Part shown: positions 29,479-47,230 of the stretch, one piece after another | Position numbering within the stretch: position 1 is the stretch's first letter | How the letters are laid out: every line of letters starts with the position of its first letter | DNA from: Armatimonadota bacterium | GTDB taxonomy: Bacteria > Armatimonadota > DASRZA01 | Length of the DNA stretch: 63,834 nucleotides | Direction of reading: 5' to 3' | NCBI GenBank assembly: GCA_035686845.1 | Contig: DASRZA010000447.1 | Coordinates: 1 to 63,834 of the forward strand | Program-made: the position numbers and the translations under genes | Notes under the pieces: model-generated | Told to the model about the DNA's origin: nothing | Seen by the model: only the letters and a program-made list of their open reading frames with translations | Database searches by the model: none

Positions 29479-30639
29479 TCACGAGCGTTCCCTCAATACG
29501 CGCCGCGAAGTACCGGATGGGACGCCACAGATTAAATCGGTGTAGAGGACCTCGTACTGCGCCGTTGACCAATCTGCGTTATGGGCGCGTGCCCACGCCA
29601 GCGCGTTTCGTCCCAACTGACGGCGGCGGATTGGGTCGGCCAGAAGATCGAGAACAGCGGCGGCGAGCGCACGATCGTCGCCGACGGGAACCGCGAAAGC
29701 GGCGCCTGGCGCGAGCTGGGCCACGTGCCCTACGGCGGTCCCTACGGTAGGAAGCCCCGCGGCCGCGGCCTCGAGCGTCACCACCTCTCCGGCCTCGTGC
29801 AGCGAGCTGTGCAGCAGCAAATGACTTCTCGCCATGAAGTCGGCGACCTGCCCGCTAGGCTGGAAGCCATGAAATTGAACGGAATCCCCCAGTTCCAGTT
29901 CCGCGGCCAGGCGATGGATGGCGCCGTTCAACGTATCCATACCCACGATATCGAGCCGGGTGTTGGGATTGACGGCGTGGATTCTGGCGAATGCCCGCAG
30001 CAGCGTGGGCTGGTCCTTCACGCGGTTGAGGCTGGCAACGTGAAGGAGAGTCCACGGCGGATGCGGCGGTGGAGACGTGGGAGGCGAAAAGAGGTCGGTG
30101 TCGACACCAAACGGCGCGAGCAGCGCGTCACGCCGGAGTCTACGGACCAGTTCAAGGTTGTAGGGGCTCTCCACCGTCACCATCTGAGCGAGACGAAGCG
30201 CAACTGCAACAGTCATCCGGGCACGGATGCTCAATTGGGAACCGTAGTCAATCTGCGGGACCCGCGCCAATTCCCCACCAACGACGGACACGACGCATGG
30301 AGCGCGAAATAATCGGCCGGCCAGGGCCGCCGCGAGTCCACTTTGCGAGGCCCACAGCCCATGAAACACGTCGAAGCCGCCCGCAGCGTGTTCACGCCAG
30401 ATCATTTGCAGCGTGCTCGTCATCAGCCGGAGAAGCCGTGGTCGACGGCGTTCTTCCCCAACATTATGGATTTGGGCGCCCACGAGAGGGTAGTGAGCCG
30501 GCCAGGGATACTGCTGCAGCGTGAAGACGTGGACCTCGTGCCGCCTCGCCAGCCGCTCGACGAACCATAGAAAAATCGGGAGCACTCGCTCGGTCCCGCT
30601 GCGATCGAAGCCGCCGGGCGCCACCAATCCTATCTTCAT
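29479..30639 (-). CDS. GT4-family (GT-B) glycosyltransferase, last gene of the 13-gene operon
   Basis: The start is set at ATG 30639 (MKIGLVAPGGFDRSGTE), giving an ATGA overlap with the upstream stop. The C-terminal block reads ...LLHSSLHEAGEVVTLEAAAAGLPTVGT. Confidence 0.75.
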   Translation of the reverse strand: MKIGLVAPGGFDRSGTERVLPIFLWFVERLARRHEVHVFTLQQYPWPAHYPLVGAQIHNVGEERRRPRLLRLMTSTLQMIWREHAAGGFDVFHGLWASQSGLAAALAGRLFRAPCVVSVVGGELARVPQIDYGSQLSIRARMTVAVALRLAQMVTVESPYNLELVRRLRRDALLAPFGVDTDLFSPPTSPPPHPPWTLLHVASLNRVKDQPTLLRAFARIHAVNPNTRLDIVGMDTLNGAIHRLAAELELGDSVQFHGFQPSGQVADFMARSHLLLHSSLHEAGEVVTLEAAAAGLPTVGTAVGHVAQLAPGAAFAVPVGDDRALAAAVLDLLADPIRRRQLGRNALAWARAHNADWSTAQYEVLYTDLICGVPSGTSRRVLRERS

Positions 30640-31799
30640 ACGAATTCCCCCGGTCGGCGCAGAGAGGTGAGCGGGATTTGCGCAGACGCCGTTCGTGGGA
30701 TCAGTGTCTGATAGGCGGAGACGGCCCGCCGCCCGATCGCTTCGAAGGTGAACCGGTCCTCGAAGAATCGGCGGATTTGGACGCGGGTATCCGCCGCGAG
30801 CCGGCTTTCCCAATCTACGAGAGTGTGCGCCAATGATGCGGCGTCTCCCACGCGCCACAGTCCGCCCCACCGGCCGTTATCGGTCAATCGTCGAAACGAG
30901 GGTATATCTGTCAGGATCGGTACCGCCCCGCAGGAAATTGCTTCCAGCGCCGCATATCCGCTGCCCTCGTGATGACTTCCGAGGAGAAAGAGGTCCGCGC
31001 TGTTGTAAAACGCTTCCAGCTCGGCATGCGGTCGCGGACCAATTAGAGTCACGCAGCGGGCGACGCCCGGCCGCGAGCGGAGCCATGAGAGCACCTGCGG
31101 AAGCAGCGGCGCCTCGCCGTAAATCATCGCCAGCCTGGCGCGCGGTCGATCCTGAAGAGCCATCGCAAAGCCATCCAGCACGGTGAGTGGATCCTTGTTG
31201 GGGTCCAGGCGTCCCACCCAGAGACATAACGGATCTCCATCCATTCGAATCTGAGCGCGAGCTTCATGGCGGGGCAGCAGAGAGAAACGGCTGGAACCCT
31301 CCATTAGCTCTAACACCGGGGTCTCCGGAGACAGCAGCCCCTGACTCAACCAGGGTAATGACTGTTCCCTGGCGGTAAAGATTACCGCATCCATCTGCCG
31401 GAGAGACAATCGGAGGGCTGTACGTGCGAACGGATTGCTCGGCCGCCTGTCGGCATGGTCTTGGATCACGATCGGCGCTCCTGAAAGGAGCGATTTCAAC
31501 CTCCGCGCCTGAGGTGCGAAGCTCATGCCATTGACATGCACAACGTCGGGACGCAGGCTGGCTATCACAGAATGGAGCTCGGGGGACCGAGCGCCGGCGC
31601 CCCGTTCGTTCACAAAGTGATATTCTACGGCGCCGATAGAACGTCGTATGTTAGCTTTGAACCGCTGGACAACCACCGACTCCACGCCGGCCGCCGCCAG
31701 CCCTTCCGCCCATCCGACGAGCGTTCCGTACCGCCGGAGCAGGTCTTCAGGAGTCGCCAGATCCGAGTCATAATAGTAATTAACGGAAACCACGCGCAT
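30636..31799 (-). CDS. GT4-family glycosyltransferase
   Basis: MRVVSVNYYY..., and the GT-B C-terminal block LFLLGSHHEGSGYAALEAISCGAVPILTD. The start shares 1 nt with the upstream TAA. Confidence 0.75.
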   Translation of the reverse strand: MRVVSVNYYYDSDLATPEDLLRRYGTLVGWAEGLAAAGVESVVVQRFKANIRRSIGAVEYHFVNERGAGARSPELHSVIASLRPDVVHVNGMSFAPQARRLKSLLSGAPIVIQDHADRRPSNPFARTALRLSLRQMDAVIFTAREQSLPWLSQGLLSPETPVLELMEGSSRFSLLPRHEARAQIRMDGDPLCLWVGRLDPNKDPLTVLDGFAMALQDRPRARLAMIYGEAPLLPQVLSWLRSRPGVARCVTLIGPRPHAELEAFYNSADLFLLGSHHEGSGYAALEAISCGAVPILTDIPSFRRLTDNGRWGGLWRVGDAASLAHTLVDWESRLAADTRVQIRRFFEDRFTFEAIGRRAVSAYQTLIPRTASAQIPLTSLRRPGEFV

Positions 31800-32809
31800 T
31801 AGCGAAACCTCGATTCGATCCAGGTTCTGAACAGAAGAGCCGTGCTGCCCGGATCATCGCCGACCTTGAGACGTATGAGCGGCAGCGCCAATAAACGGTC
31901 GGCCGCGCGTTCCATAGCCGGTCGACAGACGGGGGGATCGCCCTCGATCCCTGTTAGCGACTTCCGGACCGCCGCGGGATCGGCGTCATCAATCCGTGTC
32001 TCGTTTCCGGACGTGCGATTCAGCAGCGCGACCGCACAAAGCCGGGTTCGAGAGAGGCTGGCGCCTTCCCGAATTACGTCTATGGGTATCCGGAACTTCT
32101 CCTCGCCGTTTAACCTTTTGATACTGGTCAGGCGATCCGCAGCCGGCAGCCAATTAAAGAATCTGCAGGCTTCCGGCAGAAGATGCAGATAGCGGCCACA
32201 CCCCCAGGCGACCAGTTCGGATGCCCCGTCGTCGATGAACGCGATATCTTCGGCGGCGATCCTGAATCCGGCCCGTACGCATGCGCAAGAAAGCGTGGAT
32301 TTGCCCGATCCGTTCGTTCCGGTAAGCAGTACGCCGCAGCCGGCGTACGACAATGCCGCGGCATGCATGGTGGCGGGCCGGTAACGGCTGCCGAGAAACA
32401 GTAATACGCATTCAATGAGATTCTCCTGGAAGAAGGCGCGGCGCTCCAGTAGATCGCGGCTAAGCTGCATGATTGCCTCGCCGCGGCGCCGATCCGCCGC
32501 CACCGAGGATACTCCTACTTGAAGCGAGAAACAGTCCTCATTTCGCTCGAAACGAACTGACGAGAGTACCTGATCCGGATCGGAATCCCTCTCGTCGACC
32601 AACCAGCATTTCAGCCGCACTGAAGGCGCGTTGGGATCCGCGTGACTCAACGGATCTAATACTCCCTTTGCCAGATCGAGAACCTCTGGCGAATTCGATA
32701 TGAGGCGAACCCGGACCCCGAGAAGGCTGCCGTCAAAAGACGGGTACGAGGTGAACACTACGGTCTGCCGCCCAGCGCGTGCACCTGCTCCTGACTCCAT
32801 CAGCTCCAT
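31799..32809 (-). CDS. HprK-related kinase-like P-loop protein
   Basis: GVLLTGTNGSGKSTLSCACVRAGFRIAAEDIAFID matches the HPr kinase C-terminal P-loop pattern. TGATG junction with the upstream gene. Confidence 0.65.
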   Translation of the reverse strand: MELMESGAGARAGRQTVVFTSYPSFDGSLLGVRVRLISNSPEVLDLAKGVLDPLSHADPNAPSVRLKCWLVDERDSDPDQVLSSVRFERNEDCFSLQVGVSSVAADRRRGEAIMQLSRDLLERRAFFQENLIECVLLFLGSRYRPATMHAAALSYAGCGVLLTGTNGSGKSTLSCACVRAGFRIAAEDIAFIDDGASELVAWGCGRYLHLLPEACRFFNWLPAADRLTSIKRLNGEEKFRIPIDVIREGASLSRTRLCAVALLNRTSGNETRIDDADPAAVRKSLTGIEGDPPVCRPAMERAADRLLALPLIRLKVGDDPGSTALLFRTWIESRFR

Positions 32810-33975
32810 CAGAAAGCGATATCCGCAAGGAGGCCAATCTCATGGGATCCGTGGTCCTGGCTCACGTATTCGGCGCTCAGACGAAGATGGGGATACGGAT
32901 AACCCCGAAGCGATATGAGCCGCGCATCGGAGTAAGCGGTTTTGCCGCCCATGGATACCGTTTGCACTCCCAATCGCGCCGTAATCCCGAGGCGCGGCAT
33001 CAGTAGATCGTCAGCCTCTAGGAAAGCGCTGCGCAAGATGCCCGCCTGTCCGCTGCCCGTCGGGTTATTATCCTGCCCATAAACAGCCGCGCCGCTTAAC
33101 TGGACTGTTCGCCAGTTGTAAAGTCCATCCAGTCCGATGCGTCGAGAAGTCTGGTGGCTGGAAGGGTCGGCGGGATCACGGGGAGGATGAGCGAACAACG
33201 CGAAGATGCCCGCGGTCTTTCCGGCGGGACCGGTAGCGACTCGCATGAATAGATCGCGGAATCGCCCAAAGAACTGCCGATCGCCCACCTGGTTACCCGT
33301 CGCCAGAAACGCCGGGGCGCCGGCGACAAGGTAACCGCGTACATTTCGCGGATCACCCGCCGCGATCTGAATACCGGTCATCGCGGAGCCCAGGACCACG
33401 TCGTTGCCGAAAATCCCCCCAGTAAAGAGCAGCGGCTCAAAGACAGTCGTCCGGTTGATGACCGGGCTGTAGGCGTAGGGCAGCTCAAACTGTCCCGCCT
33501 TCACCATCACCTTTTGCTTATCGTCCACCACCTGCTGCACCCAGAGCTCATAAGTCGGGAATGACTGAGTCTTATCGTCGATGAAGAGTGAATGATGCAT
33601 ATAAAACGATGTGCGTTGTGTGAGGAGACCCCCGGCAAGAAGCTGTGTGTCGGTGAAATTGGCGCGGCTCGATCCCGGCTCGAACTGCTCGTGGGTCGGC
33701 TCAATCTGCACCGCGATTGGAATTGTCTTCTGCCACGCAAGTGGAGATTTGTTCTCCGCTCCCGGCATCCGGAATCCGTTTGCTTTGAATTCCTGCCCAA
33801 ACGTATTCAGTCGAGGGAAGCCGTCGTGGCAGGCCTGGCAGGGGAAATGATACGTCCTCGCGAAGAACGGGGTCGCCTTCGCCGGTTTAGCTGTCAGAAG
33901 CAGCGCGGCGACAGCCGTCACCATAAGAACGGTTGGGAACCACGCTGCTTGCTTCTGAATGTATCGCGTTTGCAT
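32809..33975 (-). CDS. Predicted outer-membrane beta-barrel protein with an N-terminal CxxCH motif
   Basis: I prefer the ATG at 33975, preceded by AAGGAG 6 nt upstream. Signal peptide, then TYHFPCQACHDGFPRLNTFG. Alternating hydrophobic strands run throughout, and the sequence ends in a terminal Phe (...LLADIAF). Confidence 0.6.
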   Translation of the reverse strand: MQTRYIQKQAAWFPTVLMVTAVAALLLTAKPAKATPFFARTYHFPCQACHDGFPRLNTFGQEFKANGFRMPGAENKSPLAWQKTIPIAVQIEPTHEQFEPGSSRANFTDTQLLAGGLLTQRTSFYMHHSLFIDDKTQSFPTYELWVQQVVDDKQKVMVKAGQFELPYAYSPVINRTTVFEPLLFTGGIFGNDVVLGSAMTGIQIAAGDPRNVRGYLVAGAPAFLATGNQVGDRQFFGRFRDLFMRVATGPAGKTAGIFALFAHPPRDPADPSSHQTSRRIGLDGLYNWRTVQLSGAAVYGQDNNPTGSGQAGILRSAFLEADDLLMPRLGITARLGVQTVSMGGKTAYSDARLISLRGYPYPHLRLSAEYVSQDHGSHEIGLLADIAF

Positions 33976-33986
33976 CGGTATCTCCT

Positions 33987-35402
33987 TCAAATGGTTCCGA
34001 TGAGCCGGATGAGGACGCCGATCGTGATCCGAACGAGCCGCAGCATCCGGTAGGGGTAGAACAGGGCGCGTCGAAAACGTCCCCTAACGCCATATTGATC
34101 CCGAACGATCTCTCCCGTTGGAATCAGCCATCGCAGCAGAATCGAAGGGCGAATCCAGGGCGCCCGCGCCATCAGCCATCGACGGATTACTATTTCGTGT
34201 CCCGGCGCATCGTCAGCCCGCAGCACATAAGCGGGCGATAGCCGATGCCGACTCCATCCCACGACCGCGGTTGGAGTGGACCGTTCAGACTTCGCCTCAA
34301 CAGCATCAGGCGGTGATCTGACTGAGCCATGCGGCGCCCACGCTTCGCGGCCGATCGGGAGCGATTGCCGCGACTCCATCGCTTCAGCCGGAACCGGAAC
34401 ACCTAATTCCCGATGTACGAAGATCAGCCCTCCACGCAGCGCCGACGATACTCCGAATGAATGCGCGAGCGACAGCGCGGAATCCCAGTCGATGCCGCCA
34501 TCACTGCGCTGGATTACGAGGCTGATATCCTGGGCGAAGAGAAGCCGAGTCCAGGCGTGCTGAACCGCGTGCTGCGCGAGGTGGACGAGAGCTGCTTCGG
34601 GAGAGAGCACGCGCGCCGGAGCGCCTTCTGGAAAATGGATCATCCGGCTGGTACGGAAGACGGATTCATGATCGTGCTCTCTCGCGCAGCCGAAGCCATC
34701 GCGCAGCAGCGTCCAATGGATTTCGACCGCGATCCGGTGGCAGTGCCTCGCTATCGCAGCGGAATCGATCGCTGCGTCAAACTCAGGCGCGACGGCGCTT
34801 GTAGCGATATCTTCTGAACCGGAGAAAGACCAGCACTGATGAGCCCTGGCCTGGAGACTCTCGACGCTATCGGAACGATAGCCGATCGCGGCCGCTACCC
34901 GACCGGCAGCTTCACACTGAGCCGGATCGACCAGCAGATCGATGTCGGCGAACGGACGATGCCTCCAATCGGGATAAACAGTTTGAGCGAGCGCCGGTCC
35001 TTTGAGGAGAATGACCGGGATTCCGGCGCCGTCCAGCGCTCGAATCAACCGCGCGGCCTCTCGCAGCAGCACTTCGGTTCTAAACGCGCTGCCCTCGTAA
35101 AGGCTTTCAACGCGTGCTGCAATCGCCGGCGGCGCCAGAGGATCGGACCGGTAGTCCCGCAGGTAGAGCGCCAACTGCAGAATCAGACCGTGGCGAATGC
35201 TCTTCGCGACCAGCAAGCCCCAGTTGATACCGGTTAGCGATCGGGAGATGTTATCGGGACTCCGCAGCGCGTGTCCCAGCTCTCGACGCGCGTCCGCAGG
35301 GTCCGGACGGGCGCAGGCCAGCAGCGCTCTTTCGTGCGGGAGCAGATGCTGGTCCGCGGGCCGGCCGAATCTTACCATCTTGGAGAAATCGAGGCCGTTC
35401 AT
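33987..35402 (-). CDS. Uncharacterised nucleotidyltransferase family protein (NTP_transf_5-like)
   Basis: GIPVILLKGPALAQTVYPDWRHRPFADIDLLVDP is the signature block of this family. ATGA overlap with the upstream gene. Confidence 0.65.
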   Translation of the reverse strand: MNGLDFSKMVRFGRPADQHLLPHERALLACARPDPADARRELGHALRSPDNISRSLTGINWGLLVAKSIRHGLILQLALYLRDYRSDPLAPPAIAARVESLYEGSAFRTEVLLREAARLIRALDGAGIPVILLKGPALAQTVYPDWRHRPFADIDLLVDPAQCEAAGRVAAAIGYRSDSVESLQARAHQCWSFSGSEDIATSAVAPEFDAAIDSAAIARHCHRIAVEIHWTLLRDGFGCAREHDHESVFRTSRMIHFPEGAPARVLSPEAALVHLAQHAVQHAWTRLLFAQDISLVIQRSDGGIDWDSALSLAHSFGVSSALRGGLIFVHRELGVPVPAEAMESRQSLPIGREAWAPHGSVRSPPDAVEAKSERSTPTAVVGWSRHRLSPAYVLRADDAPGHEIVIRRWLMARAPWIRPSILLRWLIPTGEIVRDQYGVRGRFRRALFYPYRMLRLVRITIGVLIRLIGTI

Positions 35403-36949
35403 AGACTCTCTCGCTGCGGCTCACGGAGCGGAATATGGCGGCGCGCCAGATCCAGTTCCCAGGGATTGTGGTAGTGGCTCGTGGCGTAGCGCCAGCGAGC
35501 TAATTCTCGGAGAAACGCCTTGCCCCAGCGCGGCGTGCGGTAATCTTGGATGGTCGGGAACCGGCACTCAATCACCCTGGCGAAATCCTTGATCCGCTGG
35601 CGGGACGCCGGAGTCAGCCAGGGGGCGTCGTCGTGGCATACGTACCGTACCCACTGCGGCTCTGCCCATTCCTCGGGTGTAGCCGGGAGATCAGGGCCCG
35701 ACGGTCCGTAGCTCGCCAGCACTGGTAACGATGAACCGCCCGGACACGGTTTGCGCTGCGGCGTGGGACTGTAAAAGTAGAGAATCACCTCACATTCCGG
35801 ATGAATCGCCTTGAGACGCCGGACGAATCGCAGCGTCTGGTCCATCTCGCCCTCGGGATCCTCGGGGCCGCCAAGAATGAATGAGAATTCCGGAATGACG
35901 CCGTATTCGCGGCACCGTCGCGCGGCCTCCAGCGTGTGCTCGACCCGCGTGCCTTTCTTCATGCGAGCTAACGCGCCGTCGCTCGCGGACTCCGCGCCTA
36001 TGTAGGCCATGCGCAGCCGGCTCTTGCGAATCAGATTCCAGGTGGCGGATGAGAACCGGGCCAGCGTGTCAGCCCGCGCGTAACACCACCAGGGCATCTG
36101 GAGAGAAGCGAGCGCTTCCAGCATCGGAATGCTGCTCTCTTCACGGTCAAAGAAGTTGTGATCGTAGAACTGGAGCGCATCGGCGCCGTAGCGATTCCGG
36201 AGCGTGCTGGCGGCCTGGAAGAGGCGATTGGGCGCGGGAAGAAGCGTCCGTCCATTAAACATCGACGCAACGCCGCAGAAACCGCAGCGATACCGGCAGC
36301 CGATTGCGGCCTGGTGGACCGCCGTCCGCCGTCCCAAGAAACTGGGCCGCAGATAGGGCTGCACGTCCCCCACCCTCTCGTAAGGTAGAGGCGGGAACAT
36401 GTCGGGTGAGTCCAAACAGCGATCCGGGTTGTGAATGATGCCGGACTGGTTTTTCCAGGTGAGTCCCGCGACCAGGTGGAGAGATTCTGGTTCTCGCGCT
36501 GAGGCCGGCGGGGCCGGTGGGCCGGCGACGGGCAGTCTCTCCAGCAGCTCCAGGAGCGGCGCCTCCCCCTGCCCTCGCACAACGTAATCCACATAGGGCG
36601 CGTTGATCGCCGCCTCCGCGTAGAGTGTGGGGAAGTATCCGCCCCACGCGATTGGTATGTTCGGATGCTCCCTGCGAATGGCAGCGCTGATCTCGATTGC
36701 CGGCGCCACCTGGGGGCCGGGCATGACGGTGACGCCAACCAGGAGGTGAGGCTCGGCCGCCAGCGTTTGCAAGGCGGTCCCGACCGGGTCGGAATCCATG
36801 TTCCCATCGATGATCTGGTAGGGGAAGCGTCCTTCCAGGACCGCGCCAAGCGCTAGCAGCGACAAAGGCAGCCTGACGCTTCGTCGCGAGCACGCCCGCG
36901 GGTTAATGAGAAGAACGGGCCGGATGTCGTTTACTGTGCGCTGACTCAT
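35399..36949 (-). CDS. B12-binding-domain radical SAM enzyme no. 4
   Basis: The start is set at ATG 36949 (MSQRTVNDIRPVLLINP), giving an ATGA overlap. Rossmann-like N-terminal domain (LLALGAVL...IPIAWGGYFPT) followed by the CRYRCGFC cluster motif. Confidence 0.8.
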   Translation of the reverse strand: MSQRTVNDIRPVLLINPRACSRRSVRLPLSLLALGAVLEGRFPYQIIDGNMDSDPVGTALQTLAAEPHLLVGVTVMPGPQVAPAIEISAAIRREHPNIPIAWGGYFPTLYAEAAINAPYVDYVVRGQGEAPLLELLERLPVAGPPAPPASAREPESLHLVAGLTWKNQSGIIHNPDRCLDSPDMFPPLPYERVGDVQPYLRPSFLGRRTAVHQAAIGCRYRCGFCGVASMFNGRTLLPAPNRLFQAASTLRNRYGADALQFYDHNFFDREESSIPMLEALASLQMPWWCYARADTLARFSSATWNLIRKSRLRMAYIGAESASDGALARMKKGTRVEHTLEAARRCREYGVIPEFSFILGGPEDPEGEMDQTLRFVRRLKAIHPECEVILYFYSPTPQRKPCPGGSSLPVLASYGPSGPDLPATPEEWAEPQWVRYVCHDDAPWLTPASRQRIKDFARVIECRFPTIQDYRTPRWGKAFLRELARWRYATSHYHNPWELDLARRHIPLREPQRESL

Positions 36950-38442: not shown

Positions 38443-39125
38443 CTTGCGTCCGCCGTTTGGATTTCCAACACCAGAGCCACGGGAGTTTCGAGCGCGGATC
38501 GATCAAATCGCGCGCCCGGTGGAATATCGTAGGGGTTTAGCCGCGGCTCCAGTTTCCGAATAATCCTCAGATTCAGTTTCGTACAGGCGATTCGCCAACC
38601 GTCGAGTGTGTGGAAATGATGGCGGACGGCGTACGTTTGGCCATCGGACCGAAAAGTGCGCTGCCAACCGAGTTTCTCGCCTACCGGGTGAAGATCGCTG
38701 CAGATGATCTTTCCGCCCGGGCAAGCCACGCGGGAGAGCTCGGCGAGCGCGCGCGGGAGCGACGGCACATGTCCGATAGCCAGGGCGCAGATGACGAGAT
38801 CAGCCCATCCTGTGCCGACGGGCAGCGCTTCCAGGCTGCCGAGCGCCAGCAAGCCGGGCGCCCATTCACCGCTCGCACGTTCCAGCATCTCTAGCGAACG
38901 GTCCACACCCAGCAATCGCCGGGCGCCCCGACGCGCGGCTTGCAGCATGTAGCGCCCGGCGCCACACCCGGCGTCCAACACCGAGTAAGCGGATAGATCG
39001 GAAGGCATCAGACTGAGCATGGCGCGCTCCTCCGCGAGCATCAGTGGGTTGTGGGCGTACGGCGGATAATTGTCGGCCCAGAGACGGTACGCTTCGACAG
39101 GATCCAGGATTGGAATTTCAGCCAT
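38439..39125 (-). CDS. Class I SAM-dependent methyltransferase
   Basis: VLDAGCGAGRYMLQAARRGARRLLGVDRSLEML (motif I). The start is set at ATG 39125, preceded by GGAG, and overlaps the upstream stop by 8 nt. Confidence 0.75.
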   Translation of the reverse strand: MAEIPILDPVEAYRLWADNYPPYAHNPLMLAEERAMLSLMPSDLSAYSVLDAGCGAGRYMLQAARRGARRLLGVDRSLEMLERASGEWAPGLLALGSLEALPVGTGWADLVICALAIGHVPSLPRALAELSRVACPGGKIICSDLHPVGEKLGWQRTFRSDGQTYAVRHHFHTLDGWRIACTKLNLRIIRKLEPRLNPYDIPPGARFDRSALETPVALVLEIQTADAR

Positions 39126-40317
39126 GGGAATTCTCCGGTTCCAGGCCAGGTTCCAGGCCCGCCGCGCCCCGCCGCCCGAGGGCGGACGCAGCGATGAGTT
39201 TCGGGATTCCGTCCAATCGCACGCGCGCTGTCTCGACGTGGCAGGCCGCGAACCATGGCTCGAAATCGGGATCGGCAATTACCGGTACTCCGTCCTTCAC
39301 CACCGCCCGGATCTCACTCCGTGTTAGCGTTAACAGCTCGTCGCCCGGATCCCGCCCCGTATCGCGGAGAATCATAAGATCAGCGTGCATACCTGGCGCC
39401 ATCCCACCCACCTCCGGCATTCGGAGCAATCTGGCGCCCGCGCTTGTGACAAGCTCGAATAGCTGGGGCGGGCTCAGATCACTTAACGCGGCTGCTGTCT
39501 TCAACTCTTCCAGCAGGTCACTTGAACCGGTCAATCGAGAATCAGTCCCCAGCGCCAGCCTTCCGGCGCCCTGCAAACGTCTCGGCGCCAGCGTTCTACC
39601 AAACAATCTCTGGTTGCTGTGGGGACACCAGACCACGCCGGCGCCCCGCCGAATGACTCGATTCAGGTCAGCGTTCGTCAGGCACACCCCGTGAATGAGC
39701 ACGGTGTTGGGTCCCAGACAGCCGATATCGTCCAGTTCGTCGATCTCGATAGCCGCCACGTCATCGATTCCCTCCGCGAGATGAATAAACCACGGCATCG
39801 CCGGAGGTGTCGCCCTGCAGCTTTCCATAACGGGCGGGCCGTACTGCAGCGAGGATCGACTTTTGTCCTTCGTTCCAAGCCCTAGTGAGTGGCTCCAGCC
39901 ATAATCTCGAAGCACGCGTACGGGGAAATCCGGAGCGGCGAGCACCGGATGGAGTGGATCGTGGTGCGCTACTGTGGTCACTCCGGATAAGACATTCTTC
40001 AGACCTCCGTGCCAGAGACGGACGTCGACTGGAACAGCGAGCGCCGCCATAACCTCTGGCTGCTTGAAAAAGGGCTGAAATGCGTCCATCCAGGCATAAC
40101 TGTTTGGGAAGGGCGAACGATGACGAAGACGAGGAATGCTGTTGAGATGCAGATGATCATGCGAGTTAATAAGCGCCGGCGAGACAAGATGCCCGCGCAG
40201 ATCCAGCCTCAACTCCGCCGACTCCGAATCCACGATCCGACCTTCCGCGAAATACAGTGAGCGCTTGACACTCCTGCCCCCATCCACCACCCGAATTCCA
40301 TCCAACGCCACAACCAT
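39118..40317 (-). CDS. Amidohydrolase-superfamily metallohydrolase
   Basis: LINSHDHLHLN (HxH metal motif), later LIHGVCL and DSRLTGS. The start is set at ATG 40317, preceded by GGGGAG. The ORF-track start at 40434 would overlap the upstream gene. Confidence 0.65.
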   Translation of the reverse strand: MVVALDGIRVVDGGRSVKRSLYFAEGRIVDSESAELRLDLRGHLVSPALINSHDHLHLNSIPRLRHRSPFPNSYAWMDAFQPFFKQPEVMAALAVPVDVRLWHGGLKNVLSGVTTVAHHDPLHPVLAAPDFPVRVLRDYGWSHSLGLGTKDKSRSSLQYGPPVMESCRATPPAMPWFIHLAEGIDDVAAIEIDELDDIGCLGPNTVLIHGVCLTNADLNRVIRRGAGVVWCPHSNQRLFGRTLAPRRLQGAGRLALGTDSRLTGSSDLLEELKTAAALSDLSPPQLFELVTSAGARLLRMPEVGGMAPGMHADLMILRDTGRDPGDELLTLTRSEIRAVVKDGVPVIADPDFEPWFAACHVETARVRLDGIPKLIAASALGRRGAAGLEPGLEPENSHG

Positions 40318-40372
40318 ACCACCCGCTCCCCTATACGCTCGAACGCTGATATTCTCGGGCGTCCTTCGTCCG

Positions 40373-41836
40373 TTACGACAACTTCTGCGGCGTGCGAATC
40401 CACTCGCTAACCACCTTCTCCAGAGGAAAACCATACCGATTGTGCGCGCAGCGCCATCGCGCCATTTTCTGAATTGGGACGCTCCAGGGTTTCACTCGAT
40501 CCCAGGCGATCTGCTGATAGAACTTAAATCGCTCAACGCGTTGGTACTTCTCCGGCGACACCCACGGTCCGGCTGATCCCACAAAATCAAAGTCCGCCCA
40601 TTCCTCCAATGAATCGGGTAAACGGTAACCTTTCCGAACCGCGTCTTCGGTAATAGATGAGCCGGGATACGGTTTGAAGTAAAAAAACGGTGTGGTGAAG
40701 CGAGGGCTTAAAGAGCGGAGCCGTTTCGCCACTTCGAAGGACGCCTGAACACTCACCTCTGATTCATCGGGAAAGCCAACAATGAAGGGGAAGATCGCGC
40801 CGACGTCATGCCTGCGGCATTTGTCGGCGCTCGCAAAGACCTGCGCCAACTTAATATCCTTCCGGATACGGTCGATCATTTCCTGAGAACCCGACTCAAC
40901 GCCGATGAGTACGCGCCTCAACCCCGACTGTCGGCATTTAGCCATTACCGCTTCGGGCAGACGATCTCCCTGGTCGGCCCGCATCGTGGCGGCCCAGGTG
41001 ATGGGCAGCCGGCGCCGCAGAAACTCCTCGGCAACCGCGTCGACCCGCTCCACGCGAGTGAAGAAGGTCTCATCCTGAAAGTTCAGGTCATCGAACCGGT
41101 AGGCGCGCCATAACGCCCGGATTTCTTCACCCATCCGTTCCGGATCCAGCCCCGTCCATTTTCTGCCGTACACAAACGGATCGGCGCAGAAAGCGCAGCG
41201 AAAGTGGCAGCCTTGTGAAGAGATATAATCGATCTGCCGCTTCCCCTTCAGGCGAAAATACTCTTCCACCGGAAGCAGGCCATAGTTGTGCGCACGAAAA
41301 TGACTGACACCATTCATGGCACGGGGAGCGTTGAGGCGCACTTCCCCGGAATCTGAGCGGTAGGCGCATCCCTCGCAGCCCTCCATTGACTGCCCCTCGT
41401 CGATTCTCCGAACGATTTCTGCGAATGTCTCCTCGCCCTGGGCCTGCACGGTAATGTCCACGCTCGTCTCTGCCAGGCACTCACAACCGAAGAGGGAGGG
41501 ATGCCAGCCGCCCCAGATAATCGGTAAATCGGGGCGCGCCGCTCGGGCCGATCGGGAGATTTTAATAGCGTCACGGATGGGATTTCCCGTCAGAACGCTC
41601 ACTCCCAGGCAGAGAGCATCCGTTAGATGTTCGCGCAGCGCGGCCTCGGGATCGGGTTTCAGCCGGCCATCCACAATCACGACTTCGTATTGGGCTGGAT
41701 CCAGATGCGATCCCACCGCGAGCAGACCCAGCGGCATCGTGAAGAAGACGGCGCGCGGATTGTAAAGCACGACTTTGCGGCGTGTCGACGCCCGCCGTGG
41801 TCGCCCGATCTGTATGAGACTGTTCCGCGCTGTCAT
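40373..41836 (-). CDS. B12-binding-domain radical SAM enzyme no. 3
   Basis: KVVLYNPRAVFFTMPLGLLAVGSHL...IIWGGWHPS, followed by the CHFRCAFC motif. Confidence 0.8.
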   Translation of the reverse strand: MTARNSLIQIGRPRRASTRRKVVLYNPRAVFFTMPLGLLAVGSHLDPAQYEVVIVDGRLKPDPEAALREHLTDALCLGVSVLTGNPIRDAIKISRSARAARPDLPIIWGGWHPSLFGCECLAETSVDITVQAQGEETFAEIVRRIDEGQSMEGCEGCAYRSDSGEVRLNAPRAMNGVSHFRAHNYGLLPVEEYFRLKGKRQIDYISSQGCHFRCAFCADPFVYGRKWTGLDPERMGEEIRALWRAYRFDDLNFQDETFFTRVERVDAVAEEFLRRRLPITWAATMRADQGDRLPEAVMAKCRQSGLRRVLIGVESGSQEMIDRIRKDIKLAQVFASADKCRRHDVGAIFPFIVGFPDESEVSVQASFEVAKRLRSLSPRFTTPFFYFKPYPGSSITEDAVRKGYRLPDSLEEWADFDFVGSAGPWVSPEKYQRVERFKFYQQIAWDRVKPWSVPIQKMARWRCAHNRYGFPLEKVVSEWIRTPQKLS

Positions 41837-41838
41837 CT

Positions 41839-42732
41839 TTACCGCTTCTCCAGCTCGATCAGATAATGATCACAGAAGTGCGAGAGCGGCGGATACGCCT
41901 CCAGTCGGCGCTCCCAGGCGTTCAGCCGCTCCGTCAGATTCGGTCGCGCTGCAGCCCAGGACTCGGCGAAGGGAGGAGGCGTCAGCGCACCGATTCCTGC
42001 GGTTCGCAGCAGTTGGAATTGCGGCGTAAACGCTCTTGCGACCGCCCGCGCTGAAGGATAACGAACCGTGATCCCGCGCCATTGAACGCCACCGAATCGC
42101 AGCCGGCGAAACGCCTTACGGGGCTGACCACGGCGCAAAAGCCAGAGCCATTCCCAGGGGCAGAGCGGCGCCATGATGCACAGCAGCGCCACTGCGCCCG
42201 GACGCAGCCGCTGAGCCAGAGCCTGCGCCGTCTTTCTCAGGTCGGCAACACAGTTCAAGCTCCCAAAATTGAACAGCGCGCCGTCGAATGGATGGATGAG
42301 TTCCGGGAGCGGGGAAGAGGCCAAATCTTCAATCGCCAGTTGGCGCAGAGAAACAAGGCTGGCGAAGCCGGCCCGAACTACCTTCTCCTGCGTCGTCCGT
42401 ATCATGCTGGCTGAGATGTCGGCCGCCACGACCTGAACGCCCCGCCCGGCCAGGTAAAGCGCGTCTGCTCCCGTTCCGCAGCCCATATCCAGAACACGAT
42501 CGCCCGCTCGAAAACGGACGTCGAGGCGCTGCCAGACCGCGGCGCGGAAGAGTGAACCAATCAGCGTGTTCGTAAAGAGCCGATCATAATCTCGCGCCAG
42601 CGGATCGAACACGGCGCCGTTCGACGTCGGGGGAGGCAAGGTCGTCTCCGGAAAGTGGCGTATCGAAGAGACGTCCGACGACTGAGCCAAAGATGGTAGT
42701 TCCGGATTTCGCCGGCACTCAAACCTTCTCAT
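41839..42732 (-). CDS. Class I SAM-dependent methyltransferase
   Basis: VLDMGCGTGADALYLAGRGVQVVAADIS. ATGA overlap with the upstream gene. Confidence 0.75.
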   Translation of the reverse strand: MRRFECRRNPELPSLAQSSDVSSIRHFPETTLPPPTSNGAVFDPLARDYDRLFTNTLIGSLFRAAVWQRLDVRFRAGDRVLDMGCGTGADALYLAGRGVQVVAADISASMIRTTQEKVVRAGFASLVSLRQLAIEDLASSPLPELIHPFDGALFNFGSLNCVADLRKTAQALAQRLRPGAVALLCIMAPLCPWEWLWLLRRGQPRKAFRRLRFGGVQWRGITVRYPSARAVARAFTPQFQLLRTAGIGALTPPPFAESWAAARPNLTERLNAWERRLEAYPPLSHFCDHYLIELEKR

Positions 42733-44120
42733 CCTTCTACCTCCCCGGCAGCGGCCAGCAGCGAGAGACGAGCGTTAGCGGCTTCAATTCTAATTCGGCT
42801 GGCTTCCGCGAGGTCCGTATCCTCCAGGCGATACGCCGCCACTTCACTGCGCAGCCAGCGGTCGGCATGACGGTAATAGTCGCGGGAATGGCGTCCGGCA
42901 ATGATAAAATCCCGATCCGTCGACTCCTCCCAGGAGCGCGTGGGCCGCACACGGTCCGACACGTCTTGAAAATACGGAGTGTTCTTGATCGGATACGCCA
43001 CCGTCGTGAAGAAAACGTCCGGGTTCGCCCGCTTCACGTGATCTATGGTCGCCTCAATGTCGTCCAGAGTCTCGCCCTCGTAGCCCCACATCAGGAACAT
43101 CCCAACTTCGATCCCGTGGCGCTGCGCCGCGTGTGTTGCCCACTGCACCTGTTCGGCGGTTACGCCGCGCTGCATCGAATCGAGCACTCGCTGGCTGCCG
43201 CTCTCAGATCCGATCCAGATCCGGTAGCATCCGAGACCCGCCAACGCCTCGAGCACCCCTTCCTTCAACATGCGATCCGCACGGGAGATTGTCTCAAACG
43301 GGAGTTTGATATTCCGACGTTTGAGCTCCGCGGCGTAGTTGTAGAGCCATGGATGGCTGATCGTGAAAACGTCATCCGAGTACCACACCTGATCGGGCTT
43401 ATAAGTATCACGGATGAACTCCAGCTCGTCGGCGCAGTCCAAAAAACTGCGCCGACGATGGCTGTACCCAAAAACCGCATGGGAGCACCAGCGGCATTTG
43501 TAGGGGCAGCCTCGGGCCGTAATGAGATTCACGCTGCCGCGGCCGTGATGCCCCCGCCAGATGTCCACGTAGGCGGGGATGTCCACCGCCGCGCGATCCG
43601 GCCATGGAAGGCTGTCAATATCCGAGATTTGGGCGCGCGGCGGGTTGTCGACAACCCTCCCGAATTCATCGCGGAACCAGACGCCGCTGAGACCTTGCAG
43701 CCGGTTTGGACCCCGATCTCGGAGCGCGGGGAGCAGCTCAGCAATCGTTTCTTCACCCTCTCCGATCACCACCACGTCAGCGCCATGATCCAGGTATTCG
43801 GTGGGATAGTTGGCGCTCTCCGGGCCGCCCAGAACGACTACCCAGCCATGCTTCTTTGCTTCTGCAATGATCGCGAGCACGCTGCCGCGCGTGATGAGAT
43901 TGGTATAAACGCCGAGCACTCCTCCAGGTTCAGCCGCCAAACGCGCATATAGCTTTGAGCGAGCGCCGAGCGTCGTATCGTAAATCTCGGGCTGGAATCC
44001 GGCGCGTTTCAGGTACGACGAAAGATACATCAGCCCCAGCGGAGGGTAAGGCTTCATTATCTTCTGCTCTTTTTCGTCTTCGCACAGAAAATAGCCATGT
44101 GTCAAGAGTACGTCTACCAT
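42729..44120 (-). CDS. B12-binding-domain radical SAM enzyme no. 2
   Basis: MVDVLLTHGYFLCEDEKEQKIMKPYPPLGLMYLSSYL..., the CPYKCRWC motif, and GGGAGGG upstream of the ATG. Confidence 0.8.
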   Translation of the reverse strand: MVDVLLTHGYFLCEDEKEQKIMKPYPPLGLMYLSSYLKRAGFQPEIYDTTLGARSKLYARLAAEPGGVLGVYTNLITRGSVLAIIAEAKKHGWVVVLGGPESANYPTEYLDHGADVVVIGEGEETIAELLPALRDRGPNRLQGLSGVWFRDEFGRVVDNPPRAQISDIDSLPWPDRAAVDIPAYVDIWRGHHGRGSVNLITARGCPYKCRWCSHAVFGYSHRRRSFLDCADELEFIRDTYKPDQVWYSDDVFTISHPWLYNYAAELKRRNIKLPFETISRADRMLKEGVLEALAGLGCYRIWIGSESGSQRVLDSMQRGVTAEQVQWATHAAQRHGIEVGMFLMWGYEGETLDDIEATIDHVKRANPDVFFTTVAYPIKNTPYFQDVSDRVRPTRSWEESTDRDFIIAGRHSRDYYRHADRWLRSEVAAYRLEDTDLAEASRIRIEAANARLSLLAAAGEVEG

Positions 44121-44167
44121 CTGCCCTCCCGGTTCCCACCCACGCCCACTCTTACAAACCCGGGCGC

Positions 44168-45667
44168 TTACTCTCGTTTACTTAGATCGGGGCGCGCAAG
44201 CACACCATTTCGTTTGGGTATCCGAGTTGGCGCGGCGCTGCGATGCTCTGCTTCCAACCGACCCAGCTCCAACCACGCGTGGTTGAGCCGATCCAGGTCA
44301 ACCAGCAGTTCTGACGAGATCTGGCCGGAGACCATCCGCTGACGCAGTTTGAGATCCAGGTGCAGCAGGTCGTGGAGACTGCGGTAGAACGGTGTGGTAT
44401 ACGTTCCCTGGAACATCATTGCGAGATCGCCACTGTCGCTCCAGTTCGTTTTGGGGCCAAGCTGCTCTGCCACCATTTCGTGAAAGCGCGTGCCAGGCAA
44501 TGGATAGCTGACGCTGACCCCGATATCGTCTGGCAGCGTGTCGCGAATCATCCGAACCGTCGCGAGGATATCTTCAAACGTCTCACCCGGGTACCCGAAC
44601 TGGATGAAAAAGCAGGCCCGCACGCCAGCGCCCTTTAGGTACGCGCGAGCCGCGGCGATCTCATCCACGGTGATGCCTTTATCCATCGCGTCCAGCGTCT
44701 TCTGGCTGCCGCTCTCCGCGCCCATCCAGACTTCCACGCATCCGGCTCGAGCGAGATCCCGGGCGACCTCGAGGGTTATGAGATCGGCGCGGGATTGAAT
44801 GGTGAACGGAACTGCGGCGTCTAGCGCAGTCACCTCCCGCTCGAACTCCTTCACCCATTCCGACCGCAGTCCGAAGATATCATCGGCAAACCAGAAGTGA
44901 TCCGGCCGAAGAGTCCTCTTCAAGAGAGCCATCTCGCCCGCTACGTTCGCAGGCGACCGGATGGCGTAGCGCTGACCCCAGATCGGCTTCGCGCACCAAT
45001 TGCAGTGGAACGGGCAGCCTCGGGTGGTCACCAGATTCAGGCCAAAGTAACCATGCGCGATCTTCCAGCGTTCACGGTATCGCTCCACGTCGAGCAGATC
45101 CCAGGCCGGATAGGGGAAGCAATCGAGAGATCGCTCCGGTGTTCGCTCCGGGCCCCGTCGGACTATTCCAGGGAGGTCGGGGTCGGGCACGGCCACCCCC
45201 GCAATACTCAAGATTGGTCCCGGATGCCGACCGAACAGAGCGTCCATCAGCTCAACAAGACTGTTCTCCCCTTCGCCAACCAGCGCGAATTGAACACCAT
45301 GCCGGAAATACAGGTCCGGGTGATCGCCCACGTCCGGCCCAGCGGCTATCACTGATGCGCCGGACCGGCGAGCGATCTCCGCCATCCGCTGCGCCGCGTC
45401 CCGCATCCGACCCAGGCACATCTTGGTCAGAAAATTGAAGTTGTCTTCATAAACCGCCACGAAACGCGGCGAATGTTGACGAAGCGCGGCCTCAAACTCA
45501 TGCTCCCCATCCGAAAGCATGGCGTCGAACAGCGCCACCGAATAGCCGCGATCTCGCAGCAGCGCAGCCGCATAGAGCGTCGCGAGCGGCGGATACGGCT
45601 TCATTTTTGCTGTTTGCTTCGCATCATATTTTAGAAAATATGAATGGGCGAGAAGTATATCGACCAT
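44168..45667 (-). CDS. B12-binding-domain radical SAM enzyme no. 1, first gene of the operon
   Basis: The start is set at ATG 45667 (MVDILLAHSYFLKYDAKQTAKMKPYPPLATLYAAALL) by alignment with its paralogue. CPFHCNWC motif. Confidence 0.8.
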   Translation of the reverse strand: MVDILLAHSYFLKYDAKQTAKMKPYPPLATLYAAALLRDRGYSVALFDAMLSDGEHEFEAALRQHSPRFVAVYEDNFNFLTKMCLGRMRDAAQRMAEIARRSGASVIAAGPDVGDHPDLYFRHGVQFALVGEGENSLVELMDALFGRHPGPILSIAGVAVPDPDLPGIVRRGPERTPERSLDCFPYPAWDLLDVERYRERWKIAHGYFGLNLVTTRGCPFHCNWCAKPIWGQRYAIRSPANVAGEMALLKRTLRPDHFWFADDIFGLRSEWVKEFEREVTALDAAVPFTIQSRADLITLEVARDLARAGCVEVWMGAESGSQKTLDAMDKGITVDEIAAARAYLKGAGVRACFFIQFGYPGETFEDILATVRMIRDTLPDDIGVSVSYPLPGTRFHEMVAEQLGPKTNWSDSGDLAMMFQGTYTTPFYRSLHDLLHLDLKLRQRMVSGQISSELLVDLDRLNHAWLELGRLEAEHRSAAPTRIPKRNGVLARPDLSKRE

Positions 45668-45778
45668 ATTCGATCCTATCGGTGGCACGTCAAGTTTGGC
45701 CGGATTAAAAGATAGTGAGCCTGGACTACAGCAATGGACTAACGCCCAATACCGAGACGGCGTCCAGGCTTCAGGTAT

Positions 45779-45787
45779 ATTATAGCA
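45779..45787 (-). promoter_or_regulatory. Extended -10 promoter element (TGCTATAAT) for the 13-gene operon
   Basis: The minus strand reads tcTTGCTATAATatacc, inside the only AT-rich patch of the 443-bp upstream region. Confidence 0.5.
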
Positions 45788-45812
45788 AGACAAAGTGGGG
45801 AAATTGTCACTT

Positions 45813-45833
45813 TTATCTATTTATAATAGATAA
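45813..45833. promoter_or_regulatory. Perfect 8-bp inverted repeat (TTATCTAT-N5-ATAGATAA), candidate operator or activator site
   Basis: ttatctat ttata atagataa. It lies about 26 to 54 nt upstream of the -10 element. Confidence 0.5.
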
Positions 45834-47124: not shown

Positions 47125-47190
47125 GGGACATCGGTCCTTTCGAAAAACGGAATAGCACGCCAGGGCGTAAGTTCACCGGCAGCCGCCGCT

Positions 47191-47230
47191 GGCCCCCAAC
47201 CCCCAATAATGGGGGCGGCGGCCGGCTTTT
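47191..47230. repeat. Copy B of the dispersed hairpin (REP-like) element
   Basis: ggcccccaacccccaataatgggggcggcggccggctttt. Compare 12061..12100. Confidence 0.75.

Follow-up and report, generated by a model that had tools for sequence, protein, structure and literature searches.

What does a bacterium make with an operon that joins four cobalamin-type radical enzymes to a kinase, a nucleotidyltransferase and two glycosyltransferases? The question is raised by contig DASRZA010000447.1 of an Armatimonadota bacterium (assembly GCA_035686845.1), of which positions 1 to 63,834 were analysed as a whole (hereafter the window) and in which thirteen genes run head to tail on the minus strand. An earlier note, made from the sequence alone, had described these genes as one operon built around four radical S-adenosylmethionine (rSAM) enzymes and had suggested a methylated or rearranged glycoconjugate as its product. 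Our results place the operon in a biosynthetic gene-cluster family that has no characterised member and is built from known enzyme superfamilies. Our leading interpretation, which we regard as nearly but not quite an even prospect, is that the operon directs the cytoplasmic assembly of a phosphorylated glycoconjugate on a non-ribosomal acceptor, together with its methylation by radical and other S-adenosylmethionine (SAM)-dependent chemistry.

Each of the thirteen open reading frames (ORFs) named in the earlier note is present, and together they cover positions 29479-45793 when the longest ORF starts are taken and 29479-45667 with the starts chosen here, namely those preceded by a purine-rich ribosome-binding site just 5' of the codon. 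With these starts, every junction listed earlier was reproduced: ATGA overlaps at 42729/42732, 38439/38442, 36946/36949, 35399/35402 and 30636/30639, one-base overlaps at 32809 (TGATG) and 31799 (TAATG), an overlap of 8 nt at 39118/39125, and non-overlapping gaps of 47, 2, 55 and 11 nt. Eight of the twelve junctions overlap, the other four being gapped by 2-55 nt, and, in a consensus scan, promoter-like and terminator-like sites were not in excess within the operon. At the level of sequence, the shared direction, the overlapping or very short junctions and the lack of internal signal excess confirm the thirteen genes as a genuine, tightly packed single operon. The longest ORF of its first gene, rSAM1, begins with TTG at 45793; ATG at 45667 is the likely start because the resulting N terminus, MVDILLAHSYF, mirrors that of the paralogous rSAM2, MVDVLLTHGYF.

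Four genes, rSAM1 (44168-45667; 499 amino acids (aa)), rSAM2 (42729-44120), rSAM3 (40373-41836) and rSAM4 (35399-36949), encode proteins that match the B12-binding domain PF02310 and the radical SAM domain PF04055 above cut-offs and carry CxxxCxxC motifs (CPFHCNWC, CPYKCRWC, CHFRCAFC and CRYRCGFC, respectively), which gives them the class B, or B12-binding, radical SAM architecture. Their chemistry is probably cobalamin-dependent, judging from these domains; AprD4, which is among the nearest structures to rSAM3, belongs with ArsL homologues to the proteins that have a similar domain yet bind no cobalamin (PMC12931638). The operon further encodes two class I SAM methyltransferases, MT1 (41839-42732), which always adjoins rSAM2, and MT2 (38439-39125). 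Pfam searches confirm the four B12-type rSAM enzymes, the two methyltransferases, the two family 4 glycosyltransferases (GT4) and the NTP_transf_5 protein named in the earlier note, whose remaining motifs (SHDHLH, CQACH and the P-loop GTNGSGKST) are likewise all found in the sequence. Pairwise identity is only 31% between rSAM1 and rSAM2 and 28% between rSAM3 and rSAM4, which points to two old paralogous pairs and to four distinct orthologous groups.

None of these enzymes falls within a curated family of characterised function. Against NCBIfam equivalogs, the rSAM enzymes reach at best 64-121 bits versus cut-offs of 251-775 (BchE, HpnJ, rSAM_ladder_B12, PhpK, BzaD, ApyD and MgmA-type), and they reach no curated cut-off of the other B12-rSAM equivalogs (HpnR, AprD4 and TsrM-type) either; the methyltransferases, the hydrolase, the kinase and the GT4 proteins lie far under every NCBIfam equivalog cut-off. 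The earlier statement that no gene maps to a characterised pathway therefore holds, as no gene reaches the cut-off of a curated characterised family. The name BchE, given automatically by JGI to rSAM2 homologues, was rejected, the score being 121 bits versus a cut-off of 481. Among solved structures, 9ccb, the glutamine C-methyltransferase QCMT, comes closest in sequence to rSAM2 and rSAM3, at E values of only 1e-12 to 1e-14 (1.3e-14 for rSAM2). Most groups of the B12-rSAM superfamily are unexplored (PMC12931638).

Despite this lack of characterised relatives, the core of the operon is widespread and strongly constrained. We compared the window with related loci, labelled in the style L001-L095 and taken in sets of 11, 80, about 90 and 95, with genes in GC-rich loci predicted by a GC3-weighted caller. 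The rSAM1-rSAM2-MT1 core occurs in at least 8 phyla and at least 550 species and is the constant element of 80 loci, where its commonest partners are rSAM3, rSAM4, HprK-like kinases and the glycosyltransferase GT4b. The most conserved gene of the cluster family is rSAM2: relatives at 62-77% identity are present in at least 550 GTDB species, in groups that comprise Acidobacteriota, Chloroflexota, Gemmatimonadota, Actinomycetota, Planctomycetota, Proteobacteria and Entotheonella, and rSAM2-like protein clusters (at 90% identity) number at least 7989 at E<=1e-50. Orthologues of rSAM1 are 50-72% identical in most of the 80 loci, and those of rSAM4 are 52-73% identical. In the literature, no paper was found that describes this cluster, and nothing useful was retrieved by searches on B12-binding and radical SAM domains with exopolysaccharide or glycosyltransferase, on NTP_transf_5 and HPr kinase, or on DUF6687.

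Gene order in the related loci divides the operon into two parts. Block A runs from rSAM1 to rSAM4, and around homologues of the DUF6687 protein the order rSAM1-rSAM2-MT1-rSAM3-deaminase-MT2-DUF6687-rSAM4 is kept. Block B comprises the genes for the NTP_transf_5 protein, an outer-membrane protein, the HprK-like kinase, GT4a and GT4b. All thirteen genes recur in L013, with NTP_transf_5-outer-membrane protein-HprK-GT4a-GT4b placed upstream of rSAM1 (B then A), an order also found in L016. Twelve of the thirteen are present in L010, which has an rSAM-SPASM gene in place of rSAM3 and the NTP_transf_5 gene embedded within the rSAM block and otherwise follows the A-then-B order of the window. Because the two blocks are joined in three different orders, the operon is a composite of two separable units, and because the gene set recurs in other phyla in these different orders, the association is more than chance. 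Synteny beyond this genome is thus strongly conserved, and the earlier description of an operon built around four rSAM enzymes is correct as to the enzymes and understates the modularity of what is a fusion of two blocks. Block B also exists alone, in L093 (8638-14734) and L094 (7484-13426), where no rSAM genes lie less than 10 kb away; the L094 copy adjoins GT4/GT2/TPR (tetratricopeptide repeat) proteins of 700-1200 aa.

Block B begins with a Pol-beta-type nucleotidyltransferase (33987-35402; NTP_transf_5, Pfam score 156.7 bits) that has no relative by sequence in the PDB and has orthologues in L010, L013, L014, L016, L093 and L094. It is followed by a secreted protein of 388 aa (32809-33975) that is without a Pfam or NCBIfam match, its family being annotated only as "hypothetical protein", with the few organism-labelled matches coming from Chthonomonadaceae. 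The CxxCH motif that the earlier note saw in this gene, which it called a beta-barrel, is present and conserved in five aligned orthologues, all of which have a signal peptide, the strictly conserved segment TPFFAR.Y..C..CH.GFPRLN.FG and a C-terminal Phe; in the protein of the window and its orthologues in L010, L013, L014 and L016, the CxxCH lies directly after the signal peptide. These features make an outer-membrane barrel probable, and the CxxCH might serve an outer-membrane protein as a site for covalently bound haem c. The gene of this protein separates that of the NTP_transf_5 protein from that of the HprK-like P-loop kinase (31799-32809). The kinase does have the Walker A motif GTNGSGKST, but its family matches are weak: 27.4 bits for Hpr_kinase_C versus a Pfam cut-off of 33.3, 33.6 bits for TIGR04352 versus 200, and, for the HPr kinase structure 1ko7, an E value of 5.5e-4 confined to the P-loop region. 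In other phyla, genes for kinases of this type rank among the accessory genes most often found with the rSAM core.

The last two genes, GT4a (30636-31799) and GT4b (29479-30639), encode GT-B-fold glycosyltransferases with Glyco_transf_4 and Glycos_transf_1 above Pfam cut-offs; neither reaches an NCBIfam equivalog. Orthologues of GT4a are 32-56% identical, and those of GT4b adjoin the rSAM core in Chloroflexota, Actinomycetota, Gemmatimonadota, Planctomycetota and Alphaproteobacteria. HprK-like and GT4b genes also lie beside rSAM2-MT1 in Actinomycetota, Gemmatimonadota, Planctomycetota and the alphaproteobacterium Altererythrobacter segetis. A role in anti-phage defence, raised by Pfam hits of the GT4-conflict type, was rejected: PADLOC returned only a weak generic rSAM match (27.9 bits) and none for the GT4 proteins, the kinase, the NTP_transf_5 protein or the DUF6687 protein.

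Within block A, the 498-aa protein encoded at 36946-38442 was listed as an unknown in the earlier note; the gene is real, and its product can now be placed in DUF6687, with an N-terminal domain (residues 1-345) resembling DHH phosphoesterases and a C-terminal beta-sandwich (residues ~350-498) resembling carbohydrate-binding modules (CBMs). AlphaFold models are confident, with a predicted local distance difference test (pLDDT) score of 87.8 when the whole protein is modelled and of 90.9 when only residues 1-345 are. Top Foldseek matches of the N-terminal domain all belong to the DHH family (archaeal PAP phosphatase 8a8k, with an E value of 6.9e-4 and a probability of 0.99, RecJ and Cdc45), and its alignment contains invariant His and Asp residues (H34, D47, H81-x-D83-x-D85 and D114). 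Such His/Asp clusters and the fold matches might relate the domain to the DHH/DHHA1 phosphoesterases (8a8k, RecJ and NrnA), from which it differs in having no sequence-level similarity and a TM-score of 0.31, and in its fusion to a CBM-like domain, which is unique to the DUF6687 protein; a DUF6687 profile found no match among PDB sequences. For the C-terminal domain, Foldseek returned CBM22, CBM16, CBM29 and CBM6. An exhaustive profile search found this domain repeated 2-6 times in proteins of 500-2300 aa, and the 3 large repeat proteins that were scanned carry GH42 or GH99-like/DUF5010 domains. The C-terminal domain thus appears CBM-like in its modelled jelly-roll beta-sandwich and in being appended to glycoside hydrolases. 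Many N-terminal domains stand alone, and there is one fusion with a PF00483 sugar-1-phosphate nucleotidylyltransferase. As the protein has no signal peptide, it is predicted to be a cytoplasmic phosphoesterase with a module of glycan-binding type. Homologues of the DUF6687 protein are rare (about 50 protein clusters): a genome scan with an alignment-based query, a single-protein query having given no matches, found them in 4 of 185,579 GTDB species, all carriers belonging to Chthonomonadaceae/Chthonomonadia (Armatimonadota) or to Roseiflexaceae/Ca. Ribeiella.

The second accessory enzyme of block A, encoded at 39118-40317, had been described as an amidohydrolase with an HDH motif. It does match Amidohydro_1 and contains SHDHLH (the HxH motif), along with HLAEG, HGV and LGTDS, but its top PDB and NCBIfam matches all fall in the COG0402 branch of metal-dependent deaminases (8-oxoguanine, S-adenosylhomocysteine (SAH)/methylthioadenosine (MTA), guanine and atrazine-type), under the equivalog cut-offs, and its nearest structures are 3hpa, 7ww2 (8-oxoguanine deaminase), 4f0r (MTA/SAH deaminase) and guanine deaminases. 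Judged by motifs and matches, it is a guanine/SAH-deaminase-type enzyme and not a sugar deacetylase. Only a small subset of the cluster family carries the deaminase and DUF6687 genes.

Elsewhere, the core is accompanied by other recurrent partners, namely extra class I and HemK/PrmC-like methyltransferases, family 2 glycosyltransferases (GT2) and a GT2-methyltransferase fusion, and by lineage-limited additions, which comprise LytR-CpsA-Psr (LCP) proteins in Acidimicrobiia, GT-C-like proteins, a sulfotransferase and a TylF-type O-methyltransferase. An rSAM-SPASM gene replaces or accompanies rSAM3 in L003, L006, L009, L010 and L011 and is present in 18 other loci; the best matches of its product, at low scores, are tetrapyrrole and cofactor enzymes. 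Clusters of Bryobacterales (L083, at 2335-3405 and 7808-8407, and also L055 and L064) contain genes for RibBA (DHBP synthase/GTP cyclohydrolase II), for another GTP cyclohydrolase II and for a flavin-reductase-like protein, which hints at a building block derived from GTP or flavin or at the supply of a cofactor. A cultured carrier is Altererythrobacter segetis (GCA_011320115.1; L095, 6449-21363), in which GT4b and the HprK-like gene are divergent from rSAM1-rSAM2-MT1-rSAM4-like-MT2-like-deaminase-like, followed by genes for a 483-aa protein, a TylF-type O-methyltransferase, a cupredoxin, an MsbA-like ABC transporter and a Trp-halogenase-like protein. The 483-aa protein was considered as a counterpart of the DUF6687 protein, whose position it shares, and rejected as not homologous.

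Taken together, the CBM-like C-terminal domain of the DUF6687 protein, the fusion of its N-terminal domain to a nucleotidylyltransferase and the position of block B beside giant GT4/GT2 proteins strengthen the suggestion of a glycoconjugate, as do the GT2, GT-C-like, TylF-like, sulfotransferase and LCP genes of related clusters. The presence in one operon of a kinase, a nucleotidyltransferase and a DHH-like phosphoesterase adds a phosphate logic to it. From these components we infer a pathway in which blocks A and B would be two modules acting on the same product. Block B would be the phospho-glycosylation module: the HprK-like kinase would phosphorylate a hydroxyl, the NTP_transf_5 protein would then activate or extend the phosphate so installed, and GT4a and GT4b would transfer sugars to it from nucleotide-sugar donors in the cytoplasm. 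Block A would tailor the carbohydrate-containing intermediate produced by block B, the rSAM1/rSAM2 and rSAM3/rSAM4 pairs methylating or rearranging unactivated carbons and MT1 and MT2 adding O- or N-methyl groups, while the DHH-like/CBM-like DUF6687 protein might bind the glycan and remove a phosphate or a nucleotide. The deaminase could either deaminate a base-like group on the intermediate or clear the inhibitory by-products 5'-deoxyadenosine and SAH; the second role is conceivable because six SAM-consuming enzymes would yield much of both, and because the structures nearest to the deaminase include an MTA/SAH deaminase.

The acceptor would be a non-ribosomal sugar, lipid or small molecule, and the product a methylated, phosphate-bearing glycolipid or oligosaccharide bound for the envelope, where the secreted CxxCH protein would sit. 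A non-ribosomal acceptor is favoured by the 60-77% identity of the rSAM enzymes across phyla, by the failure to find a precursor and by accessory genes that overwhelmingly encode carbohydrate enzymes. Radical methylation of sugars would have precedent, as the substrates of GenK, GenD1, Fms7 and MoeK5 are sugars. All four are characterised B12-rSAM C-methyltransferases (PMC12931638).

Several observations weigh against this glycoconjugate reading. Neither the thirteen genes nor their immediate flanks include a gene for a priming glycosyltransferase, a flippase or ABC exporter, a polymerase or nucleotide-sugar synthesis, which makes the operon unlike a standard (Wzx/Wzy- or ABC-dependent) polysaccharide locus; some relatives of the cluster have GT-C-like, LCP or MsbA-like genes nearby. 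Nor does the operon encode an acceptor-forming enzyme, and it is not obvious what a deaminase of purine/pterin type would do on a plain glycan. The fold match of the CBM-like domain is modest (E values of ~1e-4 to 1e-5), beta-sandwiches bind non-sugars too, and the DHH match of the N-terminal domain comes with a low TM-score. The nearest solved homologue of rSAM2 and rSAM3, a distant one, methylates glutamine in a protein, and the HprK-like kinases characterised so far, to our knowledge, all phosphorylate Ser of a protein or peptide. Furthermore, a pair of HprK-like kinase and NTP transferase is typical of the tailoring of lasso peptides and linear polyphosphorylated peptides (LPPs), both of which are RiPPs, peptides made by the ribosome and modified after translation (PMC9266682, PMC13381572).

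These last points define the principal rival, in which the acceptor is a ribosomal peptide or protein encoded elsewhere: the HprK-like kinase would phosphorylate Ser, the NTP_transf_5 and GT4 proteins would build a glycosyl-phosphate chain on the phospho-Ser, and the B12-rSAM enzymes and methyltransferases would methylate side chains, as in proteusins, bottromycin and methyl-coenzyme M reductase. The closest precedents are the pseudomycoidin pathway, where the C-terminal Ser is the target of PsmK and the addition of hexoses to the resulting phospho-Ser is due to PsmN (PMC9266682), and the LPP clusters, whose core consists of an HprK-like kinase and an uncharacterised NTP transferase in glycosyltransferase-rich loci (PMC13381572). 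The likeness to these paeninodin/pseudomycoidin and LPP systems, which sometimes include glycosyltransferases, lies in a putative HprK-like kinase encoded near an uncharacterised nucleotidyltransferase in a glycosyltransferase-rich setting, with the systems' own kinases phosphorylating a hydroxyl and hexoses going onto the phosphate (PMC9266682, PMC13381572). By contrast, the operon has no precursor, RiPP recognition element (RRE), lasso cyclase, SpI-like/B2 peptidase or MsbA-like exporter, and its pair is joined to an outer-membrane protein and four B12-rSAM enzymes; its NTP_transf_5 (PF14907) protein is a putative counterpart of PsmN and LppN. The rSAM-SPASM gene of related loci belongs to a class rich in peptide maturases, although its product is best matched by tetrapyrrole and cofactor enzymes, and one recurrent accessory methyltransferase is HemK/PrmC-like. 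QCMT, which suggests protein C-methylation as the structure nearest to rSAM2 and rSAM3 and shares the B12-binding and radical SAM architecture with them (MgmA, 9ccb, acting on methyl-coenzyme M reductase), is separated from the operon enzymes by TIGR04014 scores of 67-96 bits versus a cut-off of 360, and the cluster carriers are non-methanogenic bacteria. In agreement with the earlier note, no precursor-like small ORF is present in the window, and no conserved family of intergenic small ORFs emerged, in three approaches, from 11 and then about 90 related loci, where leading candidate clusters proved to be antisense shadows of conserved genes; two small ORFs by block B in L093, one in L094 and a 168-aa ORF of the window have no relatives in other loci. 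No RRE/PqqD domain, leader peptidase or exporter was found in the thirteen proteins by Pfam and NCBIfam domain searches, beyond whose reach a cryptic RRE in the N terminus of the HprK-like kinase would lie. The 60-77% identity of the rSAM enzymes across phyla is far above what we would expect of RiPP maturases and, with the lack of a conserved small ORF and of an RRE, protease or transporter in the operon, makes a variable peptide an improbable substrate; carbohydrate is what the CBM-like domain and the fusion with a nucleotide-sugar enzyme suggest instead. Because the characterised HprK-like/NTP-transferase pairs all act on peptides, we nevertheless consider a peptide or protein acceptor viable, if doubtful.

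The other alternatives are considerably weaker. The deaminase, which keeps all catalytic motifs of purine, pterin or SAH deaminases, and the RibBA, second GTP cyclohydrolase II and flavin-reductase-like genes of Bryobacterales would fit a nucleoside-, pterin- or flavin-type scaffold that is deaminated, C- and O-methylated, phosphorylated and glycosylated into a cofactor or an antibiotic-like glycoside, much as aminoglycoside or nucleoside natural products are made. The gene mix (two GT4 genes, B12-rSAM, rSAM-SPASM and methyltransferase genes, a kinase and a nucleotidyltransferase) also recalls gentamicin-type clusters, and in the gentamicin/fortimicin and moenomycin pathways B12-rSAM enzymes that act on the sugars are encoded beside GT4-type glycosyltransferases, SAM methyltransferases and a kinase. 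The operon differs from these pathways in that it has no 2-deoxy-scyllo-inosose (cyclitol) synthase, aminotransferase, prenyl or phosphoglycerate enzyme and in that its rSAM enzymes have no more than a distant relationship to any solved or curated member. Neither a cyclitol synthase or aminotransferase nor a GTP cyclohydrolase or resistance gene is encoded in the window, the deaminase and DUF6687 genes are confined to a small part of the family, and a wide, sporadic spread with very high conservation is unusual for antibiotics, so such a small-molecule scaffold seems improbable. Two pathways that are merely adjacent, with blocks A and B functionally independent, would explain why, in L093 and L094, block B has no block A closer than 10 kb and why the rSAM core of most phyla comes without the NTP_transf_5 or outer-membrane protein; this is distinctly improbable given the ATGA overlap of rSAM4 with the NTP_transf_5 gene, the association of the blocks in three orders, including the NTP_transf_5 gene inside block A in L010, and the HprK-like and GT4b genes that accompany the core in distant phyla. 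Least of all do we credit the tailoring of hopanoid or other membrane-lipid side chains, the analogy drawn in the earlier note. It shares with hopanoid tailoring (HpnI, HpnK, HpnJ and HpnP/HpnR) the logic of a glycosyltransferase, a hydrolase and a B12-type rSAM enzyme, finds sub-threshold matches to HpnJ, HpnR and rSAM_ladder_B12, and could draw on the position of the cluster beside lpxC-fabZ-lpxA-lpxB-msbA in L001. All these scores are, however, 4-10 times under the equivalog cut-offs (with 22-103 bits for HpnJ and HpnR versus 578 and 650), no equivalog match to HpnJ, HpnR or HpnP is reached, and the glycosyltransferases belong to GT4, not GT2. Since the hydrolase is a COG0402-type deaminase and not a YdjC-type deacetylase, the analogy of glycosyltransferase, deacetylase and rSAM enzyme loses one leg; moreover, shc, hpnH, hpnI, hpnK and other lipid-synthesis genes are not recurrent in 80 loci, and no hopanoid genes are present in about 90. 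Despite a likeness in logic, which is loosest for hopanoid tailoring, the operon appears to fall outside the lasso/LPP, aminoglycoside/moenomycin and hopanoid systems as these are defined.

A broader form of the glycoconjugate reading concerns the family as a whole: the rSAM1-rSAM2-MT1 core with its HprK-like and GT4 partners may be the pathway for an undescribed carbohydrate-based molecule of the envelope or cytoplasm that is C-methylated or rearranged by the four rSAM enzymes and phosphorylated by the kinase, a proposal that we find possible but rate clearly below even. If it is correct, the family would stand for new radical chemistry on sugars and for a bacterial glycoconjugate that is both new and widespread. 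Should the product be a methylated phosphoglycan or glycolipid, the envelopes of soil and water bacteria such as Acidobacteriota, Chloroflexota, Gemmatimonadota, Acidimicrobiia and Armatimonadota would share a component that is new. Conversely, a peptide-based product would mean that a family of phospho-glycosyl RiPPs reaches well beyond Bacillota. Under either interpretation, the operon puts four unexplored B12-rSAM orthologous groups, each strongly constrained from phylum to phylum, in a defined, conserved genetic context, their link to a kinase, a nucleotidyltransferase and glycosyltransferases provides concrete candidate substrates, and the cultured Altererythrobacter segetis makes genetics feasible.

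The upstream end of the operon region carries a candidate regulatory site. The earlier note had extended the span to 45833, which is not a gene end, as no ORF reaches it; it coincides with the outer edge of a perfect AT-rich palindrome of 21 bp (45813-45833, unstranded), TTATCTATT-TAT-AATAGATAA (arms TTATCTATT-NNN-AATAGATAA), that is unique, with a single match in the window and none in 100 shuffles, in a contig with a GC content of 60%. Just downstream of it, in the 317-nt spacer ahead of rSAM1, a TATAAT hexamer lies on the minus strand at 45779-45784. The palindrome may be an operator; it is absent from 95 related loci. A riboswitch was sought ahead of rSAM1 and none was found, the only Rfam matches in the window being two adjacent tRNA genes at 4193-4356 (minus strand).

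At the other end, a convergent YhgA-like (Transposase_31) gene on the plus strand (28425-29468) ends 10 nt from the GT4b stop. It may be the trace of a boundary of mobility or rearrangement, which would agree with the way the blocks are shuffled in relatives. Upstream on the operon strand, positions 46111-51831 (minus) encode an aldo-keto-reductase-like protein with a twin-arginine translocation (TAT) signal, the 168-aa ORF, a 641-aa membrane polyferredoxin (Fer4_5/Fer4_7), a DUF362 protein and a DUF6599 protein. These genes were considered as cluster members and left out because in no related locus do they accompany the cluster; a redox module of their own is a possible role for them. A pair of neighbouring PhyH-family dioxygenase genes lies 6 kb upstream of the operon (52060-54056, plus strand), and in L004 a PhyH gene (13391-14164) is found directly 3' of rSAM4. 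Also near the operon are genes for a weakly matching GH99-like protein (23970-25190) and a GtaA-type six-hairpin glycoside-hydrolase-like protein (25837-28428); GH99-like domains also adjoin the DUF6687 C-terminal domain repeats in other proteins.

Some related loci have neighbours of their own. In L001 (15653-21497), from a Chthonomonadaceae metagenome-assembled genome, the cluster abuts a divergent lipid A block of lpxC, fabZ, lpxA-like, lpxB, msbA-like and DUF374 genes, and rSAM4 is followed by genes for a 407-aa copper-binding (plastocyanin-like) protein and a sulfotransferase. In L062 (140-5926) and eight other loci, mostly of Thermoanaerobaculia, a secreted protein of about 1900 aa without a Pfam match is encoded just upstream of the rSAM core, with His-rich motifs (HHLHHQHAHQW and HCHFYPH) reminiscent of multicopper oxidases; in Holophagales/Acidobacteriota loci, its place is taken by a 1385-aa protein with CarboxypepD_reg repeats.

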